NCBI GenBank assembly: GCA_005400705.1
Contig: GCA_005400705.1_4079.1
Length of the DNA stretch: 64,000 nt
Reading direction: 5' to 3' (one strand)
Origin: Escherichia coli
Lineage (GTDB): Bacteria > Pseudomonadota > Gammaproteobacteria > Enterobacterales > Enterobacteriaceae
In this document: positions 2,627 through 58,305 of the stretch, in pieces
How the letters are laid out: every line of letters starts with the position of its first letter
How positions within the stretch are numbered: the first letter of the stretch is position 1
Notes under the pieces: generated by a model
What the model was told of the DNA's origin: nothing
The model's database searches: none
The model's input: only the letters and a program-made list of their open reading frames with translations
Translations under genes and position numbers: made by a program

Positions 2627-2823
2627 ATGGACTGTTTTTGAAGTTATTTGCCATTAACACATCAAAACTACCAGATACGGATAAAATTATTAAGTTAAAT
2701 GAAATCTACGTTCAAGCAACTCTAGGAACTAACTATCAAGAAGCCAATGTTTATAATTACATTAATACACTTAAAAGGGTAATACAATTAAAATGCACAG
2801 ACAGCACATACACAAACCCCTAG
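2581..2823 (+). CDS. family A small protein
   Basis: Motif TLGTNYQEAN; close paralog of 2375-2626. Confidence 0.65.
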   Translation: MQMRIITGEEYRTIINGLFLKLFAINTSKLPDTDKIIKLNEIYVQATLGTNYQEANVYNYINTLKRVIQLKCTDSTYTNP

Positions 2824-3023
2824 GAACAGCAGAATACATTGAACTAATGGCAGCAAACTTCTCATCCTTTCAGAAACTGATGCAAGAATCAAATAATGAT
2901 TTAGAATATCATATCAAAAGTTCAGATTTAAGATTGTTACTCACTCTAGGAACAGACAGTCAGTACAAATTCGTACAGGAGCATATTAGAGCACTTTTAA
3001 ATGGCATCAGGAATAAACTATGA
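2793..3023 (+). CDS. family A small protein
   Basis: Motif TLGTDSQYKF; tiling ORF. Confidence 0.6.
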   Translation: MHRQHIHKPLGTAEYIELMAANFSSFQKLMQESNNDLEYHIKSSDLRLLLTLGTDSQYKFVQEHIRALLNGIRNKL

Positions 3024-3235
3024 AGGTAATATCAAACCAAGAGTACTTGGCACTATTCAGAAAAAATAGTCAAGAATTTCTGAATCTTGATACAAGAACT
3101 GATATAAGTGAACTTGAAAAAAATCTTTTGCGTTCAGAGATGATAGTACTGACACTCTTAGGAACACAGCACCAAGAGAGAACTGTTAATTCACACATAG
3201 GGATTCTTATACAGATAGTACAGGAAAAGATATGA
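3020..3235 (+). CDS. family A small protein
   Basis: Motif LLGTQHQERT; ATGA overlap. Confidence 0.65.
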   Translation: MKVISNQEYLALFRKNSQEFLNLDTRTDISELEKNLLRSEMIVLTLLGTQHQERTVNSHIGILIQIVQEKI

Positions 3236-3453
3236 GAATCATAACACAACAAGATATTCTTAAGTTCACAAGGGTTCATGCATCTGAATTTGATGCTATA
3301 TTATCAAAAAGTTACAACAACCCTTATACAGAAGATGTACACTACAGTGAATTATGGGTGTATATACTTTTAGGTACAGATCATCAAGAGCAAGCAGTAC
3401 AGAAGTATTTGTTAGCGTTAAGTACTGCTACTGCTAATGGAGTATGTGTTTAA
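3232..3453 (+). CDS. family A small protein
   Basis: Motif LLGTDHQEQA; ATGA overlap. Confidence 0.65.
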   Translation: MRIITQQDILKFTRVHASEFDAILSKSYNNPYTEDVHYSELWVYILLGTDHQEQAVQKYLLALSTATANGVCV

Positions 3454-4566: not shown

Positions 4567-4874
4567 AATTTAATATAGCAAAAACATCGAGTATATGTAT
4601 TTTTGGTTATTCCTATGAATTGGGTGATATTGACATTCTATTGTACAAAACGAATGGTGTTATGCATTTCAAGTACCAGGATGAAGAGGCAGACAATTAT
4701 CTTTTACCTAATTTAGTACAAATGCAGGAAGAGGAATTATTCCAGTACAGCTTAATATACGACATTGATATTTGCACGATGCCAGTATTAATTAGTATTC
4801 AAAAAGTGATGCTCGATATGTATGATAAGCTAATACAAGGTATGTCAGGGAGGATCATTGAAATCGATATATAA
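4563..4874 (+). CDS. family B protein
   Basis: ATG 4563 overlapping upstream TGA (ATGA), GGAG-rich upstream; motif EEELFQYSLIYD. Confidence 0.65.
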   Translation: MKFNIAKTSSICIFGYSYELGDIDILLYKTNGVMHFKYQDEEADNYLLPNLVQMQEEELFQYSLIYDIDICTMPVLISIQKVMLDMYDKLIQGMSGRIIEIDI

Positions 4875-5070
4875 GAATTTACCTAATGAATATTTGTTGA
4901 AGTACAAAGAGTTTATTAAAGATGTATATGTAGATCCTTTTAATATCAAATTTGCAGAGTTCGAAGTATCATTTTATCTAGGGACAATAGTACAGGACCA
5001 ATACGTTGATAATCTAATAAGGTGTTTGAAAAAGGAGATACAATGCAGACCCAAATGTACAAAAAAATAA
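4858..5070 (+). CDS. family A small protein
   Basis: Motif YLGTIVQDQY; no in-frame ATG, apparent TTG start so start uncertain. Confidence 0.45.
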   Translation: MKSIYKNLPNEYLLKYKEFIKDVYVDPFNIKFAEFEVSFYLGTIVQDQYVDNLIRCLKKEIQCRPKCTKK

Positions 5071-5306
5071 ACTGTTATTTGTATGCATCAAAGTACAGGG
5101 ATTTTTGTTTACGAGGGGGAGAGGAAGATTTTGCTCTGAGATTATCGGAATTTAATATGTTATTTTATCTTGGTACATCAGTACAAGAAGAAATGGTACA
5201 GAAATTTATCAATCACCTTGTACAAAAAATTAATATGCAAATTTTGATGCTTGAGTTACAGAATGAGATAAACAAATATGAACCCAACAATAGTACAGGA
5301 TCTTAA
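5043..5306 (+). CDS. family A small protein
   Basis: ATG 5043 with AAGGAG 5031-5036; motif YLGTSVQEEM. Confidence 0.6.
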   Translation: MQTQMYKKINCYLYASKYRDFCLRGGEEDFALRLSEFNMLFYLGTSVQEEMVQKFINHLVQKINMQILMLELQNEINKYEPNNSTGS

Positions 5307-5667
5307 ACAAGTAATATTCCTTTTGAATACAAGAAGTGAAATGTATACAGAGTTTAAAGAGATTAATGCATTTTATCAGAATTTTGTAATTCAAGAGTTC
5401 AGTGATTTAATTACAGATGCATTATTTGAATTATCGGAAAAATACAAAGGAACAGAGTTCAGTGTTAAAAATGTATTACGTTCTTTATCAACGCGTATAA
5501 TAAAATTAGATCATTTCAAATTTGAAAATAAAGATTTATTCAGTCACAATCCAAGTACAGCTTTATATTTTATTCCTGATTCAGACAAAAATCATCCTAT
5601 TCATTACGGATGGATTTTGTCGTACATAGTACAAGGAAAGGAGTATCCTATTAAATGGAACGATTAG
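5278..5667 (+). CDS. hypothetical protein
   Basis: Tiling 129-aa ORF; possible degenerate B-like core (NAFYQNFVIQ). Confidence 0.5.
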   Translation: MNPTIVQDLKQVIFLLNTRSEMYTEFKEINAFYQNFVIQEFSDLITDALFELSEKYKGTEFSVKNVLRSLSTRIIKLDHFKFENKDLFSHNPSTALYFIPDSDKNHPIHYGWILSYIVQGKEYPIKWND

Positions 5668-7728: not shown

Positions 7729-8213
7729 AGTTTAGTTTAGATGCTGCCTTTAAATTTGTTCACAAGATAGAAACAATATACAGTACATTATGTGCAATAC
7801 AATCAGTATCATCTGAGTTTGATGTTGGTGAAAAATATCAGGTATGGAATAATACATTTCTAAACAAAGAACGTTGCTCTACGGGGTTTAATATTTTAAC
7901 ATTTAACCCCAGCAATTGTTACCCAGAGAAGCATGAACGTTATCCGAATGACGACATGTGGTTTGATTACACAAAAGATGGTGATATGTCATCCCTTGTA
8001 GTTCCTGATGATTTTAATGCCGAAGATTTAACGAAAGAGTGGTGGTTTCAACAGAATTTAGTACACGATGATATTGATTTATTTTTTTATGTAGTATTTA
8101 AAATGCTTTACCACAACAATATATTAAAAGATAGTGTGTTTTTTTCATGTCTATATATTGATGATTTGTACAATGAAATCCAAATCAACATGCCCAGAAC
8201 GCCTGTATCGTAA
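7707..8213 (+). CDS. family B protein
   Basis: Core motif KEWWFQQNLVHD. Confidence 0.65.
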   Translation: MQYMYDLEFSLDAAFKFVHKIETIYSTLCAIQSVSSEFDVGEKYQVWNNTFLNKERCSTGFNILTFNPSNCYPEKHERYPNDDMWFDYTKDGDMSSLVVPDDFNAEDLTKEWWFQQNLVHDDIDLFFYVVFKMLYHNNILKDSVFFSCLYIDDLYNEIQINMPRTPVS

Positions 8214-8238
8214 GATATGGGCTTTTTTCGTTTTGGTA

Positions 8239-8267
8239 TTGACAAAGAAGTGCAAAGCTGTTATCAT
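8239..8267 (+). promoter_or_regulatory. sigma70-like promoter (TTGACA-17-TATCAT)
   Basis: -35 TTGACA 8239-8244, 17-nt spacer, -10 TATCAT 8262-8267; upstream of RBS AAGGAG 8282-8287. Confidence 0.5.
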
Positions 8268-8295
8268 GTGTAATCATTTTAAAGGAGAACATATA

Positions 8296-8817
8296 GTGAG
8301 TTTCATAATCCCAAGTACATACGAAGATGCATCAAGTGCAGTGTATAAGGTTCATTATATTTTTAATTTAATTATTAGTGCATCAAAAAATAAAATGTAT
8401 GCACCTCTTGTGAAATATGATAAAAATGAGGAAATTTTTGTTAGCACAGAACAAACGATTTTTCCATATTTCAAAGAAGATAGATTGTGGTTCATGCATT
8501 CAGTCGCATTACAAAGATATAATATAACAAGGTCCAATGAGCATGATTATTTGGATATACAATTAGATCAACCCGATATTGGAGAGGATGAATATTTTCA
8601 GTACAGCACAGTACACCACCATGAAGATATCTTTGCTGCTATGCTTATTGCTAAATTGAACACCGTTGATTTGGAGCAGCACAAATACAATAATAAATCA
8701 TGTAAGATCATAATCCCTGCATTCATTGCTCTTTATGATTACATTGTGCATAACAAAAAAGATGATACATATGCTTTCAATGAAGAGTATTTGAATTTTT
8801 TTAAGGAGAACATATGA
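8296..8817 (+). CDS. family B protein
   Basis: Start placed at in-frame GTG 8296, 8 nt after AAGGAG; core motif EDEYFQYSTVHH. Confidence 0.55.
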   Translation: MSFIIPSTYEDASSAVYKVHYIFNLIISASKNKMYAPLVKYDKNEEIFVSTEQTIFPYFKEDRLWFMHSVALQRYNITRSNEHDYLDIQLDQPDIGEDEYFQYSTVHHHEDIFAAMLIAKLNTVDLEQHKYNNKSCKIIIPAFIALYDYIVHNKKDDTYAFNEEYLNFFKENI

Positions 8818-11031: not shown

Positions 11032-11586
11032 ATGAGTTCAATGAGTTTATTAGATACATTAGAAAAAGACAGAAGTGCCATTAAGAGATTAAAAAATCTT
11101 GTCCAGAGCATTGCGAACAACGCTGAGAAGTTCAGTGACAATCTTAGTATAGGTGATATAACCAGTACAGGAATAAAATCCCTGAAGTCAGATTTATTAA
11201 TTCATAAGGAAGATAAATTATTATTTGTATTGAGTTCAGATTTAATGGTTGCAAGTAATGGTTTCAATTCGATATCAACACAAGATGGTAGCACAGGATT
11301 ATATCTATCACAGGGTGTCCAGACGAACGAACAGAAGTGTTTTAGTTCAGGAGTACAGAATCCCTTTAAGTTCAGTACAGAACAAGCTACAGAGCTTTTA
11401 GAGGCTTCAGAAGAGATGTTATTTCAGTACAAAACGGTTCATACAGATTTTGAATTACGATGCATGTACGCTGTTAAGCATTATGTTCAGGAGTTCGAGG
11501 ATTTAAGTTATCTTTTAGTTCGAACGAATACAAAGAACATTGGTGCATTAGAAGATTACATTTCAAAAGTTGTTAAAGGTTGTTAA
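11032..11586 (+). CDS. family B protein
   Basis: ATG 11032 with AAGGA upstream; core motif EEMLFQYKTVH. Confidence 0.6.
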   Translation: MSSMSLLDTLEKDRSAIKRLKNLVQSIANNAEKFSDNLSIGDITSTGIKSLKSDLLIHKEDKLLFVLSSDLMVASNGFNSISTQDGSTGLYLSQGVQTNEQKCFSSGVQNPFKFSTEQATELLEASEEMLFQYKTVHTDFELRCMYAVKHYVQEFEDLSYLLVRTNTKNIGALEDYISKVVKGC

Positions 11587-11595
11587 AGGGTGCTG

Positions 11596-11757
11596 ATGAA
11601 AGAGTTATTTGAAGAACAGTTCGATACATATGTGGATAATATTCTTTATTCTAGCCGTGCTAGTCAACGAGGAAATCGTGCTTACAACATAGATTACCTA
11701 TTAACGGTGCTGAGTTCACAGTACACCTACGCTGTACAGAGGACATATTATGAATAA
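11596..11757 (+). CDS. hypothetical small protein (53 aa, absent from ORF track)
   Basis: ATG 11596 to TAA 11755-11757 fills an otherwise empty gap; AAGGG upstream. Confidence 0.3.
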   Translation: MKELFEEQFDTYVDNILYSSRASQRGNRAYNIDYLLTVLSSQYTYAVQRTYYE

Positions 11758-11953
11758 TTTTAGAGATGTTGCAAAGGAGAAGTTCAAGTGCAGTTTAGAT
11801 TACGGTTTAAATGATTTTCTTACATGCACAATGTACAGGAATGATGATTATGAGCAATCCGTAATTTCGTTGCACAGATATTTCGAAATAATTTACGCAA
11901 GATATCTTAGAAGGTTAGATGGGATAGGGGATTGGAATTATGATTACGTTTGA
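11750..11953 (+). CDS. hypothetical small protein
   Basis: 67-aa tiling ORF. Confidence 0.5.
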   Translation: MNNFRDVAKEKFKCSLDYGLNDFLTCTMYRNDDYEQSVISLHRYFEIIYARYLRRLDGIGDWNYDYV

Positions 11954-12164
11954 AGAGCCGGAAGTGGTATATTGCTTTAGTGTGAAAGGTTTTGAATACA
12001 TGATGGATTCGATTTTGAAGGATACATATTTGGTTCAGATTGCAGTTACAGATAATACAGATAATGCATTACAGCGTGTAATGAATATGTACGAGAAGAC
12101 AAGTCGAAGGCTTTGTGCAATGAAAAGGATTGAAGAAATCAAGGTTTCTAGGCTGAATAAATAG
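11940..12164 (+). CDS. hypothetical small protein
   Basis: 74-aa tiling ORF overlapping upstream stop. Confidence 0.5.
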   Translation: MITFEEPEVVYCFSVKGFEYMMDSILKDTYLVQIAVTDNTDNALQRVMNMYEKTSRRLCAMKRIEEIKVSRLNK

Positions 12165-12364
12165 AGACGTTTCATTTTGACAGGCCGCAGGGGGGTCAAA
12201 AAAATTTCCGCTGAAAAACATGCTAAGGTATATGTTTAATATAAAGTTTTATATTGTGTTTTTCAGAGTACAGTTTATGTTTCCTGAAACAAAAAAAAAA
12301 TACCCCGCCACCGAACGTGCTCCTTATATTGGAGTTTACCTTATTAATTATAGTAGAGATTAAG

Positions 12365-19629: not shown

Positions 19630-19949
19630 TTAAAGTAATGTACGCTACTCATATTAAACTACTACTTGTTAAATTTGATTATAATAAAAAACATAATGAT
19701 TTCTATACTTTAATTCGTGATGAAAATACATTCTCCTTGCGATGCAACAATATACCCTTGAAGATAAATGATTTTACTTCACTTGACGAGGGGGAATTAT
19801 TTCAAGAATCATTAGTTTTTAATAGTAATATAAAAATTGATATAGAAGTTATTAAAAAATACCAGATTCTATTGAACAAAATTATGAATTGTTATCCATG
19901 TGAAATAGGTGGTCATATGCAGTTCAAATCAAAAATGTATGAATTATGA
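19608..19949 (+). CDS. family B protein
   Basis: Core EGELFQESLVFN. Confidence 0.65.
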   Translation: MRRESELVKVMYATHIKLLLVKFDYNKKHNDFYTLIRDENTFSLRCNNIPLKINDFTSLDEGELFQESLVFNSNIKIDIEVIKKYQILLNKIMNCYPCEIGGHMQFKSKMYEL

Positions 19950-19956
19950 GGTTTAT

Positions 19957-20493
19957 ATGTTAGATAAAAAAATGAACTCTGGAACCCAATATAATCATCT
20001 TAAGTTGGATACATTCGAATCAGCTATCAGTACAGCACAAGATATAATTGATATTATCAAGTTCATTAAAGAAGATAAGTTCAAATGTTTGAAAATACTA
20101 AATCGTTCAATGTACCGTGATAAAAATATTCATGTATCAGTACGTAGACCGAAAGATCAAGAAAGTGGGAGAGATTTCTATAACAACAGTGAGCAGTTCG
20201 AATGTGAATATGATCCAGAATTTAGAGGTGGTTTCATGTGTTACTGTATGAAGGATACCTCACACATTGAGATACGTTCATCGAAAGGTGGCATACGTAC
20301 ATTAGAGTTTATTGATATAGTTTTAAATCAGGAATACTACTTTCAACTATCATTATTGTTTCCTGCATACGATTTAGGAGTTCTATTCATGTATAAGTAC
20401 TTTTATGAGCACTGGAATGAAGACTTCTATCTGGACTTAGAAGATTACCAATTAGTTTGGAAAGAAATGGTAAAACTTCGCAACCCATCTTGA
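19957..20493 (+). CDS. family B protein
   Basis: ATG 19957 with GAGG upstream; core NQEYYFQLSLLF. Confidence 0.6.
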   Translation: MLDKKMNSGTQYNHLKLDTFESAISTAQDIIDIIKFIKEDKFKCLKILNRSMYRDKNIHVSVRRPKDQESGRDFYNNSEQFECEYDPEFRGGFMCYCMKDTSHIEIRSSKGGIRTLEFIDIVLNQEYYFQLSLLFPAYDLGVLFMYKYFYEHWNEDFYLDLEDYQLVWKEMVKLRNPS

Positions 20494-20519
20494 CACCCTC
20501 CGATTCTTTGTGATATAAT
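20490..20519 (+). promoter_or_regulatory. sigma70-like promoter with extended -10 (TTGACA-18-TGATATAAT)
   Basis: -35 TTGACA 20490-20495, -10 TATAAT 20514-20519 preceded by TGA; the box forms the 5' arm of a 9-bp inverted repeat GTGATATAA / TTATATCAC whose 3' arm abuts ATG 20553. Confidence 0.65.
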
Positions 20520-20552
20520 CTCTTTATATTAATTGTAAAGGGTTATATCACA

Positions 20553-31729: not shown

Positions 31730-32203
31730 ATGGAGATTAAAACTGTTGAAAATGGGAAAATTGATGACATTTTAGAGTTGGACGCATTCAAAGTTCATGA
31801 TATAATGTTTAATGTGAAGGACATTATTCAATGTCTATTTTTGTGTAGCAAGACAATGCATGATTTTTTTCACAACCCAAATACTAACGTTTTTATACTA
31901 ACAATCAGTACTGAAAACTCGTTTATCATGGGTATGCCTATGAGTACAAATGAACAATATATTGATTGTGTTATTCGTAATAACGATAGTATTACGCCAC
32001 AATCTGAAGTACGTAAAAAGAAAAACACCTACACAATCAAAGATGATAAAATTATGATGTGCTGTAGTAAAGGGTTTATATTAGATAATTTTATCGTAAA
32101 AGACAGTTATCACGACTTTAAAGTATCTGAAAATCAATCCAATGTAGTTCTTTATGCGAGTGACATAGAAAGTCTAACAGTTAAAGATCCCAGTTTGGAG
32201 TAA
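31730..32203 (+). CDS. hypothetical protein
   Basis: 157-aa tiling ORF; no family motif. Confidence 0.55.
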   Translation: MEIKTVENGKIDDILELDAFKVHDIMFNVKDIIQCLFLCSKTMHDFFHNPNTNVFILTISTENSFIMGMPMSTNEQYIDCVIRNNDSITPQSEVRKKKNTYTIKDDKIMMCCSKGFILDNFIVKDSYHDFKVSENQSNVVLYASDIESLTVKDPSLE

Positions 32204-33534: not shown

Positions 33535-33580
33535 TGTGAACATATTAGATTCTTGTGATATAATGTTCACATCTTTTTTT
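33535..33580 (+). promoter_or_regulatory. extended -10 promoter box inside a hairpin plus T-run element
   Basis: TGATATAAT 33556-33564 lies between 9-bp inverted repeat arms TGTGAACAT 33535-33543 and ATGTTCACA 33563-33571, followed by T-run 33572-33580. Confidence 0.5.
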
Positions 33581-34032: not shown

Positions 34033-34338
34033 ATGGAAGACAATGGAATGAAATTTGATATGTTTGAAGGTGTACCAGAGTTCGATTTCAACAAACTTGA
34101 AGAAGGTGAGGAATCAGAACTAGTTAGTGTTACACTTAAAGCAGATTCTAAAAAGAAATATTCATCATCAGTACGTTCACGTTCACAAGAAGAATACGAA
34201 TCATTTATTGAAAGTATTCATTATGAAACATTCCATCACGCAGATGGAACTCCATATGAAGTACGTGTAACAGTACTGAAGCCTGAAGTAAATCCAATGG
34301 AAAATCTACGTCCTGTTTACTGCTGGGCAAGTCACTAA
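34033..34338 (+). CDS. hypothetical protein
   Basis: 101-aa ORF with AAGGAA RBS; followed by terminator. Confidence 0.55.
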   Translation: MEDNGMKFDMFEGVPEFDFNKLEEGEESELVSVTLKADSKKKYSSSVRSRSQEEYESFIESIHYETFHHADGTPYEVRVTVLKPEVNPMENLRPVYCWASH

Positions 34339-34390: not shown

Positions 34391-35245
34391 ATGAAACTTT
34401 ATCTAATCGTTGACTACAATAAGGATTATGCTGGTAACTTCACCGAAGATTCGGATGGATATTGCACATCGACTAATGTCAATGTACGTAGCAGTAGTGC
34501 TCATGAACATGAATCTTGTAAAAATCTAAAAGATTTTATCGCATACCGAGCATTTGAAAAGAACTTCTGCCGCAGTAGATATTCGAAGTTTGAGTACCCG
34601 TTAATTGATGTTCCTGATGATTTAATGTTCCAGTTAATGCTGACTGGAGTTCAAGATTATGATTACATAGCGTATAATCATATTACTAAGAAAATTTATA
34701 TTGGTACATCATCACATGACACTTCTATGTATGCATCATGCCCAGATGATCGAATGAATGATAGAAAATCATACTATAGTGGGTCAGTTGGTTTAAATGA
34801 TTCATTAAATAAAAATTCATTCTTTGAGTATGTTTATGATTACCATCATGAGAAAAAAGAACGTGAAGATTACTGTATAGCAATTGATAGTACTAATGGT
34901 TATGAAGACGTGAAAGAAGCACTTATGCCGTACATTATTGAAAAGTACTACAAAGATTTTCAGTACTGTAGTAATTTTCTAATCAGAAATTCTATTATAA
35001 TCGGTCGCCAATCTAGTGCATACTCTCAGTACTATAATGATTCACCAGTAGCATCGGCAAATGAAATGTGTGATATTTTACAAATTCCACGTGAAGATAT
35101 GGCATTCATTTTTACATCTTTTATTGAAGATGATGAGTTGTATATTAAAAATAAACACCGTTTCATGCCAAGCAAGATTGAGGTTATTCGAAGTTTTAGT
35201 GTTGATATACTAACAAATTTCACAGAAAAAACCGAATATAACTGA
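34391..35245 (+). CDS. family B protein (long member)
   Basis: 284 aa; core DDLMFQLMLTG. Confidence 0.6.
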   Translation: MKLYLIVDYNKDYAGNFTEDSDGYCTSTNVNVRSSSAHEHESCKNLKDFIAYRAFEKNFCRSRYSKFEYPLIDVPDDLMFQLMLTGVQDYDYIAYNHITKKIYIGTSSHDTSMYASCPDDRMNDRKSYYSGSVGLNDSLNKNSFFEYVYDYHHEKKEREDYCIAIDSTNGYEDVKEALMPYIIEKYYKDFQYCSNFLIRNSIIIGRQSSAYSQYYNDSPVASANEMCDILQIPREDMAFIFTSFIEDDELYIKNKHRFMPSKIEVIRSFSVDILTNFTEKTEYN

Positions 35246-35262
35246 GACAAATGATAAGTTAA

Positions 35263-35307
35263 TGATATAATATAAGGTGACAACATAATATGTTAGTCAC
35301 CTTTTTT
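35263..35307 (+). terminator. rho-independent terminator preceded by a TGATATAAT box
   Basis: TGATATAAT 35263-35271, then hairpin GGTGACAACAT-aat-ATGTTAGTCACC 35276-35301 and T6 35302-35307. Confidence 0.65.
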
Positions 35308-35830
35308 AATCCTGAAAGGTTCCCATAAGGAAATGATTAAAAGCCTAATCCACTCGAAAATGTAGAGGGTAGATGAGTAGTCCTTTCAGTACGAACAGCA
35401 GATGAAACCCGTTAGATGATGGCATAGTTTGAACCACTCACGGCAATGCGGCTGTATAAAGAACTCCAATAGGATAAAGAGAGTTCCTCGATAGACATAT
35501 AAGGATCGCACCTTACCAATTATCTAAGGGAGATTTCATAAGAAATATGCGGTCGGAATTATACAATATAGTTGCGTCCAAATTTTGTGAAATCAAATAC
35601 AAGTACTGGTCATATGGTATTTGTATTATGTGTCGGGATGTTTAAGACCGACGACCGTTGCTACAAGAACCGCGATAGAGAGAAACAGAGCAACCCGCTT
35701 TCGTCTCGTAAGAGAATTCGTGATATGAACTATGTGAAGGCCACCAGCGTCAAATTTTTTTGTTCTTTCCCCTGCGGGGGGATGAAATATGCTCAAGCAA
35801 ACCCCGTCAATATTAATTAAAAGAAAATAG
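35308..35830 (+). ncRNA. candidate structured non-coding RNA or regulatory island (GC-enriched, ORF-free)
   Basis: About 520 bp with no tiling ORF in a genome that is otherwise saturated with coding sequence; visibly higher GC; several local hairpins (GTCGG..CCGAC near 35632-35652, GTTGCT..AGCAAC 35658-35693, CCCCTGCGGGGGG 35770-35782); strand uncertain. Confidence 0.3.
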
Positions 35831-35847
35831 TACTTGTAGAATTAGAC

Positions 35848-36468
35848 ATGCGTAGCATGATAATTCTACTGATGTTGATGCAATCAACGTCACGTATATT
35901 CATTGATGTTTCCATAGGAATAATGATGGCATTTATTAGAAAAGAAAAAACTGTTACTTATAAAACTTTGAATTTTGATGATTGCATTAATCAATCACAA
36001 GACGAAGATATCTTTACTGGATATGTGGTTATTAAAGAAAAAGGATGCATTTCTTATATAAAGGAATTACAAAATGGAATTGAAGTGACTTCAGTTAAAT
36101 TACTTCCTACTCAAAAACCAACAATATCAAAAGCCCAGTATGGTAATTATTTTGAAGAAAGATATAGTAATAATTCAATAAGTGTTAAGGCTCATATTAT
36201 TAAAGGAGAACTAGAAGGAGAATATAGAAAATACAACCCACAAGGAAAATGTGTTTGGGTTAAATACTTCAATTCAGGATATGATGTAACATCTGAAATT
36301 ATAGAATTCTTGGGTTTAAAATGTACCCCTGAGACTATTCATGATTACAAGTTCAATACTGAAGAAGAGTTTAATCTGATGATGCGTTACGGTTCACATT
36401 TTAAATTTTTATATGAATATAACATTGACAGTAGTACTTTTGATAAGATAGTACACAACTGTCTCTAA
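35848..36468 (+). CDS. hypothetical protein
   Basis: 206-aa ORF; several in-frame ATGs so start uncertain. Confidence 0.5.
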   Translation: MRSMIILLMLMQSTSRIFIDVSIGIMMAFIRKEKTVTYKTLNFDDCINQSQDEDIFTGYVVIKEKGCISYIKELQNGIEVTSVKLLPTQKPTISKAQYGNYFEERYSNNSISVKAHIIKGELEGEYRKYNPQGKCVWVKYFNSGYDVTSEIIEFLGLKCTPETIHDYKFNTEEEFNLMMRYGSHFKFLYEYNIDSSTFDKIVHNCL

Positions 36469-39029: not shown

Positions 39030-39292
39030 ATTATAAAGATTTCCTACTAACATACAAGATTATTCGAGATTTAGCACACGACAATGATAGCCCTAGTCTA
39101 GAAGACACATGCACTGAAATGATTCATACAATTCGTGGTAAGATTAAAAAAAAATTCAGTACTGTTATTATTGGTGATGACCATGCAGAATTTTCTGATA
39201 TAATCATTAGACGTGATGGTAAAGTTGAGGTTCAGTACTACACTGATTTTGGATTTACCAGTATTCCGTTGGAGATATTCCCTTGGGATTAA
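39026..39292 (+). CDS. family C small protein
   Basis: N-terminus MNYKDFLLTYKIIRDL; ATGA overlap. Confidence 0.6.
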   Translation: MNYKDFLLTYKIIRDLAHDNDSPSLEDTCTEMIHTIRGKIKKKFSTVIIGDDHAEFSDIIIRRDGKVEVQYYTDFGFTSIPLEIFPWD

Positions 39293-44300: not shown

Positions 44301-45439
44301 CCCTTTTACAAATATATGAAGATTTAATGCACTTATGTAATACAAACGATGCGTTTTTTTATGTGGATCATAAAAGTCCTGCTGGTGGTACGTATCGTGT
44401 ATTCAGTTATCGTCTAGCATCATACACTGATTTCATGCAACCAAATGCGTTGGAAACCCGTGGCTCTATGTGGGAAATTGATGAAGAAGGTGACATGATA
44501 CGTTGTGCAGCACGTACAATGAAAAAGTTCTTCAATGCTTACGAGAATCCTGCTACAATGTTCCCTGCTAACACCACATGCGATGACATTGCGGTAGTGA
44601 TGCCTAAGTTGGATGGTTCGATTATCAGTACTTATCGTGATAATGATGGTGAGATTCGTTGTAAATCACATACTGCATTGTATTCTGACCATGCGATTAA
44701 CAGTACTCGACTTATTAACGAGAACCAGAATTTGTACCAGTACATCGACGAAGCGGAACGTTTAGGTTACACAGTTAATATGGAGTATACAAGCCCAGAG
44801 TACCGAATTGTATTACCATATCAGGTAGAACAACTGTTTGTACTGAACGTTCGACATCGTGTGAGTGGTGAGTTGCTATGTGGTAAAGCACTACGTGATA
44901 AGTTTCCATGTCTTGCACAGTACAGTACTAATATGACTGGAAAAGATATTCATCACACTTTTCCGGTACGAAATACCTTCCGTGAAAGCGTGGAGGAAGT
45001 TCATAAAATGCTTGATATTGAGGGTTTTGTGTGCATCCTAAATAATGGGACAATGTGTAAAATAAAGACTGACTGGTACAGTTCATTACATCTTACAAAA
45101 GATAGTATTATTATTGATTCTCATTTATATGAAGCCGTATTAAATGGTTCAAGTGATGATTTAAAACAATTGTTCAGTACTGATGAATATGCTATGCAAA
45201 AGATATTAAGAATGGAACAATTGGTATTTTCGTGCTATAATGCATTACAAGATGAAGTAGAAAGCTTCGTCAAGGAACACAAGCACTTGGAGCGAAAGGA
45301 ATTCGCAATGAAGGTTCAGGAGTGTTTAACTAATGAACTGAATCGTCAGGGCTTGGCCTTTGCAATGTATAACAATAAGAAAGTTGATTACAAAGAGACT
45401 CTTATAAAATACATGAAAATTGTACTAAAGGATTTTTAG
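44297..45439 (+). CDS. rnlA: RNA ligase 1 (T4 RnlA-like)
   Basis: Remembered similarity to T4 Rnl1: N-terminal TYRVFSYRLASYTDF, RGSMWE and lysine-adenylation motif PKLDGSIIS; length 380 aa. Confidence 0.8.
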   Translation: MTLLQIYEDLMHLCNTNDAFFYVDHKSPAGGTYRVFSYRLASYTDFMQPNALETRGSMWEIDEEGDMIRCAARTMKKFFNAYENPATMFPANTTCDDIAVVMPKLDGSIISTYRDNDGEIRCKSHTALYSDHAINSTRLINENQNLYQYIDEAERLGYTVNMEYTSPEYRIVLPYQVEQLFVLNVRHRVSGELLCGKALRDKFPCLAQYSTNMTGKDIHHTFPVRNTFRESVEEVHKMLDIEGFVCILNNGTMCKIKTDWYSSLHLTKDSIIIDSHLYEAVLNGSSDDLKQLFSTDEYAMQKILRMEQLVFSCYNALQDEVESFVKEHKHLERKEFAMKVQECLTNELNRQGLAFAMYNNKKVDYKETLIKYMKIVLKDF

Positions 45440-45469
45440 TACTATCTAGCCTAAGCACAAGGAGAAGTG

Positions 45470-45724
45470 ATGGCTAAACCTAAGTATAAAAATGACGGTT
45501 CCCTTTCTCCGACTGAGTTCAGGAAAATACAAGAAGAAATCGATGAATTACAGCACAAACGCTCAATGAAAGGTGTGAAGATAAGTAAGAAACGAATCGA
45601 GAATACCTTCGGATGTAGTAGTACTGAATACAAGAAGAAAAGGAAACCAAAAGGTGTTAAGCCGAGAATACATGATGTAACTCGCTATACATCGAAACGT
45701 GAAAATAAATTTGATCCACTATAA
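45470..45724 (+). CDS. small basic protein
   Basis: ATG 45470 five nt after AAGGAG; lysine/arginine-rich. Confidence 0.55.
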   Translation: MAKPKYKNDGSLSPTEFRKIQEEIDELQHKRSMKGVKISKKRIENTFGCSSTEYKKKRKPKGVKPRIHDVTRYTSKRENKFDPL

Positions 45725-45733
45725 GGAGTTCAT

Positions 45734-45964
45734 ATGAAAGTTGAAGTTCAGCATAGTATTGTTCAGGATATGTCAGTAGTTAAATTTCTTTCTCTGAAAG
45801 ATTACTTCAGATGTATCAAGTTCCTAGAAGAATCTCAATTACAGTGGACCCCATTAAAGTACAGTTCATCCAATGATACAGCTAGTATTCGTTGTGATGA
45901 ATCTGTACTTGTGAAAATCTCCAAACGATTTGGAGTAGGAAAAGTTAATGAGCACAGTAAGTGA
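45734..45964 (+). CDS. hypothetical small protein
   Basis: 76-aa ORF after AAGGAG. Confidence 0.55.
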   Translation: MKVEVQHSIVQDMSVVKFLSLKDYFRCIKFLEESQLQWTPLKYSSSNDTASIRCDESVLVKISKRFGVGKVNEHSK

Positions 45965-46202
45965 CCTAAAATACTACAACAAAACTGCGGATACGTTTAT
46001 TACTCATTTATATGAAGAATTTAGTCGTATCCGTAAGGAATATACAGGTAAATGTATTTTATATAGTTCTTATCATAGTGGTGGAATTGAAAGTGCTTAC
46101 ATTACTAAAGTGAAGTTTTCTGATGACTATCAATTACTCTTTGAATTAGATGATTGTTTCGTTATTGAAGCTTGTTTGATAGTGGATGTTCTAGATAATT
46201 GA
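45948..46202 (+). CDS. family D-like small protein
   Basis: Motif KEYTGKCILYSSY. Confidence 0.5.
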   Translation: MSTVSDLKYYNKTADTFITHLYEEFSRIRKEYTGKCILYSSYHSGGIESAYITKVKFSDDYQLLFELDDCFVIEACLIVDVLDN

Positions 46203-49539: not shown

Positions 49540-49845
49540 ATGGATATACAAACATTCAATAAGCTAAAGTACTATGATAATGGTTTTGCATTAATAATTA
49601 ACGAACTTGATGGGATACCATACGAATATCATAATCAATTAATGAAGATAGTAAAATGTATATGTGAAGAATTAAAAAGTATGTTTAAAAATGAATATGT
49701 TTATGATTTAGGTAATAGTAGCAAAAAACTATACATAAAGAAATTCTGGGGAACGCATTGTGGTTTAATGGTCGATTTAGGTTTAAGTTTAGACGATAAT
49801 TCTGAATCATGTTCATTATATATAGATGAAATGCGAATATCATGA
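49540..49845 (+). CDS. hypothetical protein
   Basis: 101-aa tiling ORF. Confidence 0.55.
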   Translation: MDIQTFNKLKYYDNGFALIINELDGIPYEYHNQLMKIVKCICEELKSMFKNEYVYDLGNSSKKLYIKKFWGTHCGLMVDLGLSLDDNSESCSLYIDEMRIS

Positions 49846-49860
49846 GACGTATCAGAATTC

Positions 49861-49885
49861 GGTGATATAATTTGATTACATCACC
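49861..49885 (+). promoter_or_regulatory. TGATATAAT box embedded in a hairpin
   Basis: TGATATAAT 49863-49871 inside inverted repeat GGTGAT 49861-49866 / ATCACC 49880-49885; just upstream of RBS GGAGAAG. Confidence 0.45.
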
Positions 49886-57140: not shown

Positions 57141-57545
57141 ATGAATATACGTTCAGTACGAATATTTTCATTTGTTGATATGAATGAAAAACACTCTTAT
57201 GTGTTTGAAACTGTCAATAAGTTAAATCCTCATACGGCAAAAATGATTGAAACCATGAAGATCTTGAGTTTGCATATAGAAGTTTACTATCTTCATGACG
57301 ATTCTGTTTTTGTATATGATGATGGATGGTATGACGGTGTGTTTTATGATGACATTAGCACTACTGCTGATTACTACTTTCTAGTGAGTAACCCACTATT
57401 CAGTACTAAAACTTTGTTTGACATTACCGATACAAGCGTGTATGATACAACTCATGTTGAGTTACTTAAGTTTGATCCAGTATTATTCAACAAAGAGACG
57501 GCGTATTGGATGACTGATTTCTTTTCAAATATTCCAGTAAAATAG
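57141..57545 (+). CDS. hypothetical protein
   Basis: ATG 57141 five nt after TGGAG. Confidence 0.55.
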   Translation: MNIRSVRIFSFVDMNEKHSYVFETVNKLNPHTAKMIETMKILSLHIEVYYLHDDSVFVYDDGWYDGVFYDDISTTADYYFLVSNPLFSTKTLFDITDTSVYDTTHVELLKFDPVLFNKETAYWMTDFFSNIPVK

Positions 57546-57546
57546 T

Positions 57547-57575
57547 TTGGACATTTTAAATCTTAGTGATATAAT
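57547..57575 (+). promoter_or_regulatory. sigma70-like promoter with extended -10 (TTGGAC-17-TGATATAAT)
   Basis: -35-like TTGGAC 57547-57552, -10 TATAAT 57570-57575 preceded by TGA; upstream of clpP RBS AGAGGAAA. Confidence 0.6.
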
Positions 57576-57609
57576 ACTCACAACAACGAAATAATAGAGG
57601 AAATTAATA

Positions 57610-58305
57610 ATGGTTGAACAATTCATGTTTGGTGGTTATGCTAATGGCGAAGTACGTAACATTTCTATTCCTTACGTAGTTGAGAAAGTTAATGGTTCAG
57701 AACGTACATATGATCTAGCATCTCGTATGATGCAAGACCGTATCATTTTCCTTGATACTGATTTCAATGATCAAATGGCACATATCATCAAACAACAATT
57801 GGTATGGTTAGACTCACAAGGTGATTCCCCTATTACATTCTACATTAGTTCACCGGGTGGTTCAGTACACGCAGGTTTGGGTATTGCAGATGTTGCTAAG
57901 TCTTGTATTTCGCCAATTCGCACTGTAGTAATGGGCTATGCAGCATCAATGGGTTGCTATACACAATCTGTTATTGGGACTAAAGGTTTCCGTTTAGGTG
58001 GTAAACGCTCATACTTCATGTGTCACCAAGTAAGTTCTGGTACACAAGGTCTAATTACAGACCAGAAGATTTCCCTACAACATTCTGATGCACTGAATAC
58101 ATTGTTGACCAAAGAAATTGCAGAAGCTGTAGGTGTATCACATGAACAATTACTAAAAGATGCTGACCGCGATTTGTGGTTAAATGCAGAAGAAGCACTT
58201 GAATATGGTGAACATGGTTTCATTGATGGTATTATTCTTGGTCCACGTAACGAAGAAGGCAAGTACTTAGTTAAGCGTCGCGGTGGTGTAGAAGAGTGGG
58301 TGTAA
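57610..58305 (+). CDS. clpP: ATP-dependent Clp protease proteolytic subunit (ClpP-like)
   Basis: ERIIFLD, ISSPGGSVHAG, GYAASMG (catalytic Ser) and downstream His (MCHQ) in ClpP order. Confidence 0.75.
   Translation: MVEQFMFGGYANGEVRNISIPYVVEKVNGSERTYDLASRMMQDRIIFLDTDFNDQMAHIIKQQLVWLDSQGDSPITFYISSPGGSVHAGLGIADVAKSCISPIRTVVMGYAASMGCYTQSVIGTKGFRLGGKRSYFMCHQVSSGTQGLITDQKISLQHSDALNTLLTKEIAEAVGVSHEQLLKDADRDLWLNAEEALEYGEHGFIDGIILGPRNEEGKYLVKRRGGVEEWV

Follow-up and report, generated by a model that had tools for sequence, protein, structure and literature searches.

A structured non-coding RNA element of jumbo phages of Enterobacterales and of chromosomal islands, probably the gene of a new RNA family

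The locus and its conserved RNA structure

The DNA analyzed in this study is a stretch of 64,000 nucleotides (nt) deposited under Escherichia coli (contig GCA_005400705.1_4079.1), and the whole of it is referred to here as the window. The window belongs to an Asteriusvirus jumbo phage and is about 99% identical to Escherichia phage 121Q. At 35244-35816 it carries a copy of a conserved non-coding element, which is very probably a gene for a structured non-coding RNA (ncRNA) and is the subject of this report. The identity to 121Q is 99.9% across a 700-bp region at the element and 98.7% across the surrounding 12 kb.

An earlier examination of the letters of this DNA (the sequence-only reading) had pointed to 35308-35830 as a 520-bp island that is free of open reading frames (ORFs), enriched in GC, and a candidate for a structured RNA or a regulatory element. 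The claim that no ORF tiles the segment was borne out: from the stop codon of the upstream gene of 284 amino acids (aa) at 35245 to the downstream gene, the largest ORF on either strand is 82 aa. The length given for the island was not, since the non-coding stretch measures about 680 nt (35246-35925). The stop-to-stop gap without ORFs of at least 90 codons runs from 35243 to 35820 and is the fifth longest in the window. In the close relative G17, no coding sequence is annotated in the gap, and the next gene starts at the position equivalent to 35926 of the window. The GC enrichment is real, the GC fraction of 35308-35830 being 0.402 against a window mean of 0.324 (standard deviation 0.029), which ranks seventh among 1270 windows of the same size. 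The island had also been described as starting after a terminator preceded by a box, and both the box (TGATATAAT) and a hairpin with a run of six T are present at the place in question (Table 1). The G6 tract that had been remarked upon exists, but CCCCTGCGGGGGG occupies 35769-35781, one base off the 35770-35782 first reported, with G6 itself at 35776-35781.

The element is not confined to this locus. When blastn with settings for distant matches was run with 35320-35800 as the query, four places were found in every Asteriusvirus record, and five places in GAP32, CBB, BF, Yen9-04, 7t3/Munch, XbC2 and their relatives (Mimasvirus, Eneladusvirus and 7t3-like phages), at 65-75% identity. The matched places are mostly without annotation. 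In OR844650.1, for example, four copies lie on one strand at about 18.5, 128.5, 208.3 and 261.8 kb and have 70-74% identity to 35336-35816 of the window. A profile built without Asteriusvirus sequences matches the window at 35243-35816 with E = 6.7e-116 and elsewhere in the window gives promoter-like fragments only. No second copy within the window was found by blastn or by nhmmer --max, which likewise returned only such fragments.

The covariation analysis used an alignment of 51 representatives of at most 94% identity (from phages, metagenomes and islands) plus the window copy, which was made with MAFFT and was not fitted to a structure. The helices, including two crossing ones, were taken from a scan of column pairs on 43 unique phage copies. 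A first MAFFT alignment had shown long invariant blocks between hairpins with compensatory changes, and when RNAalifold was applied to 10 sequences, double changes were seen in 39 of the 69 pairs that it proposed. The structure on the 52 sequences comprises 16 helices and 84 pairs with two pseudoknots. We compared this structure with controls in which the partners were slid by 1-3 columns and with shuffles. The cells holding a standard pair amounted to 95.0%, against 36-45% (about 40%) in the slid controls and a shuffle mean of 75.9%. Pairs changed on both sides numbered 66 of the 84, against 28-35 in the slid controls and 48.3 as the shuffle mean, and the corresponding cells numbered 810, against about 100-130 and 230, respectively. 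None of 500 shuffles attained any of the observed measures. That is, the proposal of a structured RNA holds when the element is compared with its homologues. The several local hairpins on which that proposal had partly been based are a weaker argument: when folded by itself, the sequence does only slightly better than shuffles (z = -1.73), and the support comes from the comparative data.

The features of the window copy are listed in Table 1. The best-supported helices are the two pseudoknots, PK1 and PK2 (99.7-100% paired). Between the helices run strands that are invariant or nearly invariant in the 52 sequences, namely AGAUGAG, GAAACCCG, GGCAAUGCGGC, GAUAGACAUAU, AAGGGAG, GACCGUUG, GAGAAAC, AACCCGCUU and CGUCA. 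Such a pattern is typical of a defined tertiary fold or of a specific binding or catalytic core, and we think that it may have that meaning here. At the 3' end stands a 50-nt block, YUCCCCUGCGGGGGGAUGAAAWUG..UCAACAAAUCYCGUCAR, which we call the 3' box; its hairpin (helix 16) varies almost solely from G-C to G-U. Membership in the family, as we define it here, is apparent from the window sequence, in which the full-length profile match, the promoter, helices P1-P14, PK1, PK2 and the 3' box are all found. A helix closing the 3' domain (ACGA/UCGU) and a pairing of the G-run with 35698-703 or 35802-06 are further candidate pairings, the columns of which are invariant or vary only between G-C and G-U.

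Table 1. Features of the window copy of the element and the gene that follows it
Feature	Position	Strand	Components	Support or remark
Predicted promoter	35244-35271	+	-35-like GAGACA (35244-35249), 16-nt spacer, extended -10 TGATATAAT (35263-35271)	sigma-70-like score 10/12; TATAAT with TG
Hairpin and T6	35274-35307	+	bulged hairpin AAGGTGAC/GTCACCTT plus AACAT/ATGTT, then T6	sequence; ARNold terminator call in G17
5' domain, P1	35312-35389	+	P1 (35312-19 / 35382-89), enclosing a variable hairpin and P2	helices 1-2: 14 of 16 pairs change on both sides
P2	within 35312-35389	+	35345-47 / 35370-72 and 35350-55 / 35365-69; conserved loop GAAAAUGUA; then invariant strand AGAUGAGUAG	
P3 and P4	35395-35455	+	P3 (35395-99 / 35451-55), P4 (35409-12 / 35440-43), invariant internal loop AGAUGAAAC / CAAUGCG	helices 3-4: 100% paired, 5 pairs change on both sides
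P5	35461-35486	+	hairpin (35461-66 / 35481-86)	helix 5: 6 of 6 pairs change on both sides
P6	35490-35532	+	invariant GAUAGACAUAU, P6 (35500-04 / 35511-15), then ACC...UAAGGGAG	helices 6-7
P7	35532-35594	+	35532-35 / 35591-94, enclosing the optional module	helix 8: 4 of 4 pairs change on both sides
Mini-module	35548-35590		hairpin with conserved loop UACAAUAUAG(A/U)U(C/G)CGUCC	inside P7 in the window copy
P8	35596-35627	+	hairpin (35596-600 / 35623-27; 35603-08 / 35615-20), loop forms PK1	helix 9: 10 of 11 pairs change on both sides
PK1	35609-35729	+	P8 loop 35609-14 with 35724-29	helix 10: 99.7% paired, 6 of 6 pairs change on both sides
3' core	35631-35722	+	P9 (35631-34 / 35650-53), invariant GACCGUUG, AUAGAGAGAAAC, AACCCGCUU	helices 11-15: 96.6-100% paired, 17 of 22 pairs change on both sides
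PK2		+	35657-61 / 35690-94, crossing P11 (35671-75 / 35718-22) and P12 (35678-82 / 35698-702)	100% paired
P13	within the 3' core	+	35705-07 / 35712-14	
Conserved strand and U7	35745-35761	+	CAGCGUCAAA, then U7 (35755-61)	site of the terminator inserted in 18 of 57 other copies
3' box	35763-35816	+	C-rich/G6 hairpin (35768-72 / 35777-81), GAUGAAAUAUG, CAAACCCCGUCAAUAUUA	in all 52 aligned copies
Downstream gene	35926-36468	+	180-aa hypothetical protein, followed by dam methylase	outside the element; marks the end of the non-coding stretch

We also considered whether the element encodes a protein. No ORF is common to the paralogous copies, and in one paralog the element contains no ORF of more than 48 codons. 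In Pfam and PHROGs, no family matched the small ORFs of the window copy. A protein gene or pseudogene was therefore set aside, there being no conserved reading frame and no protein-family match in these two collections. A small ORF in the 3' box (GGGGGGAUGAAA...) was rejected as well, because its ATG is missing in one paralog, a stop codon follows immediately in another, and all codon positions are conserved. Several recent GenBank records (PP886230, PQ390715, PQ330092, OR699282, PV654397 and others) have three to six small "hypothetical proteins" annotated over the element; such entries are almost certainly spurious calls within the gene of a non-coding RNA.

The sequence-only reading had left the class of the RNA open and had named suitable checks. 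The Rfam check found no match in the window at the gathering score, and none in the region or in the copy from an E. coli island (described below) at E ≤10. The loci holding eight diverse members gave no match at E ≤1. The lack of a canonical tRNA T-loop and of group I intron elements, which had been noted by eye, agrees with the programs: ARAGORN reported no tRNA or transfer-messenger RNA (tmRNA), and Rfam no intron. Among the known classes that we rejected, a group I or group II intron gave no match to Intron_gpI, Intron_gpII or the domain models, and the element is intergenic with its own promoter; RNase P RNA, 6S RNA, tmRNA and tRNA gave no match in Rfam or ARAGORN. The series AGAUGAGU...ACGAACAG...AACCCG may locally resemble the 3' region of E. 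coli M1 RNA, a likeness that no model supports. In the literature, searches under the phage names, the topic and the invariant sequence strings returned no description of the element.

Copies in jumbo phages and in chromosomal islands

When 76 distinct full-length copies were clustered, it was the position in the genome that determined the grouping across genera, and not the genome from which a copy came. One group is type A, which lies upstream of dam and includes the window copy; four further types occur in Mimasvirus and Eneladusvirus. In GAP32, BF, XbC2, Kaldavass, 7t3 and RaK2, the best match is at the same position, preceded by a hypothetical gene and standing two genes ahead of dam and a cytidylyltransferase gene. 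The RaK2 copy, the middle of which has diverged, is syntenic and homologous (nhmmer 3.8e-32 and 1.8e-14). A divergent metagenomic phage of 349 kb has a copy syntenic to the Asteriusvirus copy at 128 kb. The paralog types are ancient and orthologous across genera.

The types differ in the presence of the inserted terminator, in the site of the mini-module (loop UACAAUAUAGAUCCGUCC), which stands in P7 or P13, and in the apical insert of P4, which has short and long forms. In the T14 copies, as judged from the type consensus, P7 is without the module and extra sequence is found inside P13 instead. A few copies have the module at both sites, namely the Asteriusvirus 208-kb paralog (ECO103) and the E. 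coli island copy (with the second site at 20378-20412 of locus L212). By paralog type, then, the module occurs in P7, in P13, in both or in neither, the second site being equivalent to 35703-35716 of the window, and it behaves like a swappable peripheral element.

The sequence of PK1 also differs in each of the four Asteriusvirus paralogs (UCAUAU, UUGUAU, UUGCAU and UCGAAU). Because all four differ, gene conversion has not homogenized the paralogs. We think that they would not be merely extra doses of one RNA and that they are probably non-interchangeable.

A gapped motif of the 3' core was found in 41 stretches of IMG/VR, nearly all of them on contigs of about 345-380 kb, that is, whole jumbo-phage genomes, and the rest on shorter ones. 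The same motif was found in 65 metagenome stretches and in 8 stretches of bacterial genomes. Full-length homologues (nhmmer 1e-92 to 1e-101) are present in the complete chromosome of Serratia fonticola GTA-SR07, in Serratia sp. 2723 and in Silvania hatchlandensis, and the same scan found them in Enterobacter chinensis, two Enterobacteriaceae assemblies, a Buttiauxella metagenome-assembled genome (MAG) and a 2.8-kb contig labelled Clostridium. This last contig (DPOH01000171.1, 2808 bp, labelled Clostridium sp. MAG) carries an RNA copy of the enterobacterial-island type together with a fragment of a tyrosine integrase gene, and it is probably mis-binned. No plasmid carries the element.

Each island copy lies about 1-2 kb inside a block of low GC (0.32-0.36) that adjoins DNA with the GC content of the host. 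The gene upstream of the RNA in the islands encodes a large serine recombinase or a tyrosine integrase, and in several islands the RNA is followed by a convergent CI-like S24 repressor, an HTH_35 Ner/Cro-like protein and a protein of 286 aa. The 286-aa protein recurs in five of nine islands and is widespread in Enterobacter and Klebsiella; it showed no domain of Pfam, PHROG, PADLOC or NCBIfam, and no informative name for it was found in public sources. A complete Enterobacter island of about 11 kb is situated between rlmI and yccX (about 3.5-14.5 kb of locus L213). Its order is serine integrase, three unknown genes, the RNA (7853-8525), the CI-like repressor, HTH_35, the 286-aa protein, an LprI-like protein, an invertase and KwaA/KwaB, the last two being the Kiwa defence system. 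In E. coli, an island of about 10.7 kb adjoins ffs in 2 of 5426 complete genomes (NZ_AP027515.1, about 15.9-26.6 kb of L212). The RNA is located there in an unannotated gap of 1.4 kb (19884-20549, E = 4e-130), where the RefSeq pipeline left it without annotation, and the defence cargo consists of DUF4326, DUF488 and dual-OB proteins.

The island proteins have no significant homology to those of the jumbo phage except for one partial DUF4326 match. Since the island RNAs form one clade with copies from a divergent phage lineage, the family seems to be mainly phage-borne, and one lineage would have been exchanged with the islands.

As for the islands themselves, the insertion sites are beside ffs, within or next to rof, and between rlmI and yccX, and these small integrative islands of about 10-11 kb may be an undescribed island or satellite family. 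In the Serratia fonticola locus (L144), rof occurs twice at the island junction (4775-5038 and 5227-5490; 87 aa each, differing in two residues). Such a doubling is the mark of an island that has integrated into rof and has brought a replacement copy with it.

Promoter and transcription unit

Transcription from the promoter of the window copy is predicted to start at about 35277-35280. All 51 copies that were aligned with their upstream flank carry TG(A/G)(A/G)AC, a spacer of about 13-17 nt and TGTGnTATA(A/C)T, the form TATACT being that of the islands. This class of promoter has been described for CBB and GAP32 as divergent RpoD-like, with TGAAACG at -35 (Buttimer et al., PMC5259590). A -35 of the TGAAAC type might make the promoter specific to the phage, in which case infection would induce the island RNAs, but it would also be compatible with a weak sigma-70 -35 combined with an extended -10.

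The hairpin at 35274-35307 was missed by a simple terminator scanner because its stem is bulged. Because it stands downstream of the -10 box, the hairpin probably has two roles, as the terminator of the upstream 284-aa gene and as the hairpin at the 5' end of the RNA, which it may stabilize. The predicted start falls in its 5' arm, so that the -10 box is situated upstream of the terminator hairpin of the preceding gene. This order of promoter, hairpin and T-tract is kept in the type-A copies of GAP32, BF, 7t3 and Kaldavass. Other copies have a 5' hairpin without the T-tract, and RaK2 has the ordinary order, in which the terminator precedes the promoter.

Downstream, a gene on the opposite strand follows in 17 of 54 representative copies, and some copies, for example in CBB, are flanked in this way on both sides. 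The terminator that is inserted in 18 of the 57 other copies is a hairpin with a T-run, and it stands between ...CGUCAGA and the 3' box. The neighbouring genes of the four Asteriusvirus paralogs are unrelated to one another, and there is no conserved protein neighbour. Because the element has its own promoter, downstream genes on the opposite strand and internal terminators, we regard it as a stand-alone RNA gene and not as a leader. The suggestion of a regulatory element, in the sense of a leader, thus found no support, many copies being flanked by opposite-strand genes or ending in a terminator of their own. The RNA is estimated from the sequence to be about 480-540 nt long. Because a terminator precedes the 3' box in a third of the copies, the 3' box may fall outside the mature RNA in those copies, and it may be either an RNA element or a site that acts at the DNA level.

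Weak nhmmer matches to the promoter part of the profile only were seen in the window at 45209-45245, 49834-49875, 33537-33569, 57540-57638, 31777-31811, 39179-39209 and 20488-20542. These promoter-only matches show that the class TG(A/G)(A/G)AC ... TGTGnTATAAT recurs before further genes of the phage. A promoter of this class is found directly upstream of the tRNA cluster (34114-34142) in the relative ECO103.

Other stretches of the window also lack ORFs. The longest is 836-2099 (1264 nt, GC 0.333), which contains internal direct repeats, with self-matches of 68-74% over 320-470 nt at an offset of a few hundred bases. A scan of it with Rfam gave no match, and it could be another non-coding feature. 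The stretches 45437-46202, 11584-12244 and 2821-3421, of 600-770 nt each, are without ORFs of at least 90 codons and are single-copy in the related genome.

Possible function, rival explanations and comparison with known systems

We think that the element is an independent gene for a structured ncRNA of a new family that is absent from Rfam, and we put the probability of this at about 0.85. As to its action, the host sigma-70 RNA polymerase would start at the extended -10 promoter, and the transcript would open with the hairpin that also terminates the upstream gene. The RNA would then fold into two domains with at least 16 helices, two pseudoknots and long invariant joining strands, and this folded particle may act in trans, not as a leader for the neighbouring gene. 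Because the islands and the phage share no protein, the partner would either be a component of the host that Enterobacterales have in common or be the RNA itself. In the latter case, PK1 might bridge molecules and lead to homo-oligomeric self-assembly; the sequence alone is compatible with PK1 being formed within one molecule or between molecules. Self-assembly is favoured because the loop-junction pairs of the RNAs ROOL and GOLLD proved to be intermolecular bridges. By this analogy, homo-oligomeric assembly through PK1 is a tentative proposal, with the chances somewhat against it. If we had to guess, we would take it for an RNA that acts in trans, folds by itself and possibly also assembles with itself, of the kind of ROOL and GOLLD but unrelated to them. 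We can also imagine, as a bolder speculation that is rather unlikely to hold in full, an RNA machine of the mobile elements of Enterobacterales. In that case five ancient paralogs, each with a PK1 code of its own, would form RNA-only or RNA-host complexes or act as structured origin primers and be essential for the phage, and the islands would have captured one of them to exploit or sabotage infecting jumbo phages. Were this so, helper and parasite, or defence and phage, would be meeting at the level of RNA.

Several points weigh against the reading as a stand-alone, trans-acting RNA gene. At the position of the terminator, the window copy has only the U7 run (35755-61) and no canonical terminator follows, so that read-through into the downstream dam operon is possible. 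Both ends of the RNA are placed from the sequence, and trans action, a host partner and oligomerization we likewise infer. The members from which the structure was worked out belong to the same family, which favours the percentage of paired cells over the slid control though not the count of double changes. The folding of the single sequence (z = -1.73) is not exceptional. Finally, the island copies could have the proteins of an infecting jumbo phage as their targets, or could themselves be the target of such proteins.

Among the rival explanations, a role in defence or counter-defence is improbable. In this explanation, the island RNA would serve an immunity function, for example as an RNA antitoxin or a decoy, and the phage copies would neutralize it as mimics, or the island would hold a dominant-negative copy of an RNA needed by the phage. 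Phage mimics of RNA antitoxins, such as pseudo-ToxI, are known. The RNA is essentially the sole thing common to the phages and the islands, it adjoins a CI-like repressor in the immunity region of the island, the RNAs of island type group with those of a single lineage of jumbo phages, and the defence cargo includes KwaA/KwaB in Enterobacter and DUF4326, DUF488 and dual-OB proteins in E. coli. In the sampled Rak2-like genera, however, the RNA is core, syntenic and present as several paralogs, whereas counter-defence genes are usually patchy. Moreover, the recurrent 286-aa protein, which has no recognisable domain, occurs in only five of the nine islands, and a doubly pseudoknotted RNA of about 450 nt is far more elaborate than the known RNA antitoxins. 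A little less probable again is a replication-origin pre-primer, in which the G-rich 3' end of the structured RNA would hybridize persistently to DNA and prime synthesis; the dispersed copies would be the origins of the phage, and the islands would have pirated one copy to be amplified by an infecting phage. ColE1 RNA II, of about 550 nt, is close to the element in size, and phage T4 has a similar number of origins, which consist of a promoter plus an R-loop. Four to five copies are dispersed over the 352 kb of the phage genome (near 18, 128, 208 and 262 kb), the folded core is followed directly by a C-run and a G6 run that does not vary, no recognisable replication gene accompanies the RNA in the islands, and the replisomes of these phages are T4-like (PMC5259590). 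Yet the invariant unpaired strands and the two pseudoknots exceed the needs of known origin transcripts, a terminator separates the core from the G-run in those 18 of 57 copies that have the insertion, and neither GC skew nor gene orientation changes at the window copy.

A cis-acting leader for the downstream genes, whether a riboswitch, an attenuator or a processive antiterminator like put of HK022, seems very improbable to us. The genes downstream of the window copy (the 180-aa gene, dam and cytidylyltransferase) are indeed co-oriented with it and follow no canonical terminator, and the terminators just after the RNA in other copies recall the layout of promoter, put and terminator. Such an explanation does not suit the 17 of 54 copies with an opposite-strand gene downstream, let alone those flanked on both sides as in CBB; in addition, the downstream genes are unrelated among the paralogs, and the next gene in the islands is a convergent repressor. 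The least probable explanation, to which we give hardly any weight, is that the element has no function of its own and is left over from a protein gene or a mobile element (an intron, a miniature inverted-repeat transposable element or the end of an insertion sequence). This explanation would account for a dispersed repeat, for the GenBank records with small hypothetical proteins and for the alternative positions of the mini-module. Against it stand the lack of a common ORF, of any protein-family match and of a group I or II intron match at E ≤10. Furthermore, diverged copies at orthologous positions across genera leave no room for recent movement, and the compensatory changes show selection on the pairing of the RNA.

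If the stand-alone RNA gene is accepted, the finding is of interest for several reasons. Large folded RNAs of bacteria and phages with unexplained function are rare, and OLE, ROOL, GOLLD and raiA each opened structural and functional work. We know of no precedent among large phage RNAs for four to five differentiated paralogs per genome or for sharing with chromosomal islands. The differentiated paralogs suggest separate specificities or hetero-assembly. The lysogeny-type switch and the defence cargo of the islands point to an interaction at the RNA level between the jumbo phage and the resident element. The phages concerned include cultivable, sequenced ones that have E. coli as host (121Q, PBECO4, phAPEC6 and G17), which allows direct genetic testing. 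The finding also corrects the annotation of several GenBank records, in which spurious small hypothetical proteins are entered.

Finally, we compared the element with known systems. In the phage PA5oct, which is described as related to the RaK2, 121Q and GAP32 phages, four ncRNAs defined by RNA sequencing (ncRNA001-004) are 236-619 nt long, abundant and free of ORFs, and two of them, ncRNA001 and ncRNA002, account for about 5% of the phage reads each (PMC7318152). These PA5oct ncRNAs indicate that such phages make large ncRNAs with the host polymerase. The element differs from ncRNA001 and ncRNA002, the two that were compared, in having no homology to them by nhmmer --max; the PA5oct ncRNAs are not known to have a described structure. 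With ColE1 RNA II and the origin transcripts of T4, the element would have in common a promoter-driven RNA of about 0.5 kb and a G-run near the end, and T4 has several origins per genome; it is unlike them in that a terminator precedes the G-run in many copies and in that the conservation of its tertiary structure goes far beyond what such RNAs require. The prohead RNA (pRNA) of phi29 is a phage RNA in which two covarying loops pair between molecules and so form a ring. The paralog-specific PK1 codes of the element would permit the same logic, although pRNA is 174 nt long, is single-copy, belongs to protein-primed phages and has no sequence relation to the element. The Rak2-like phages use T4-type terminases (PMC5259590).

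The closest likeness is to ROOL (RF03087) and GOLLD (RF01998), which, like the element, are RNAs of 500-800 nt with many helices and pseudoknots, are encoded by phages or mobile elements and have no associated protein. In ROOL and GOLLD, the covariation-supported kissing pairs between loops and junctions are the intermolecular bridges of RNA-only cages (PMC12286853). The element too has a covariation-supported pair of a loop with a junction, PK1, which is a candidate for such a bridge. On the other hand, no covariance model of ROOL or GOLLD matched the element at E ≤10. ROOL and GOLLD are often adjacent to tRNA genes, whereas the window has no tRNA, and in ECO103 the seven tRNAs at 31-35 kb are 12 kb away from the nearest copy. 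The element is also set apart from ROOL and GOLLD in that it occurs as four to five ancient, differentiated paralogs per genome and that its hosts are the jumbo phages of Enterobacterales and the chromosomal islands.

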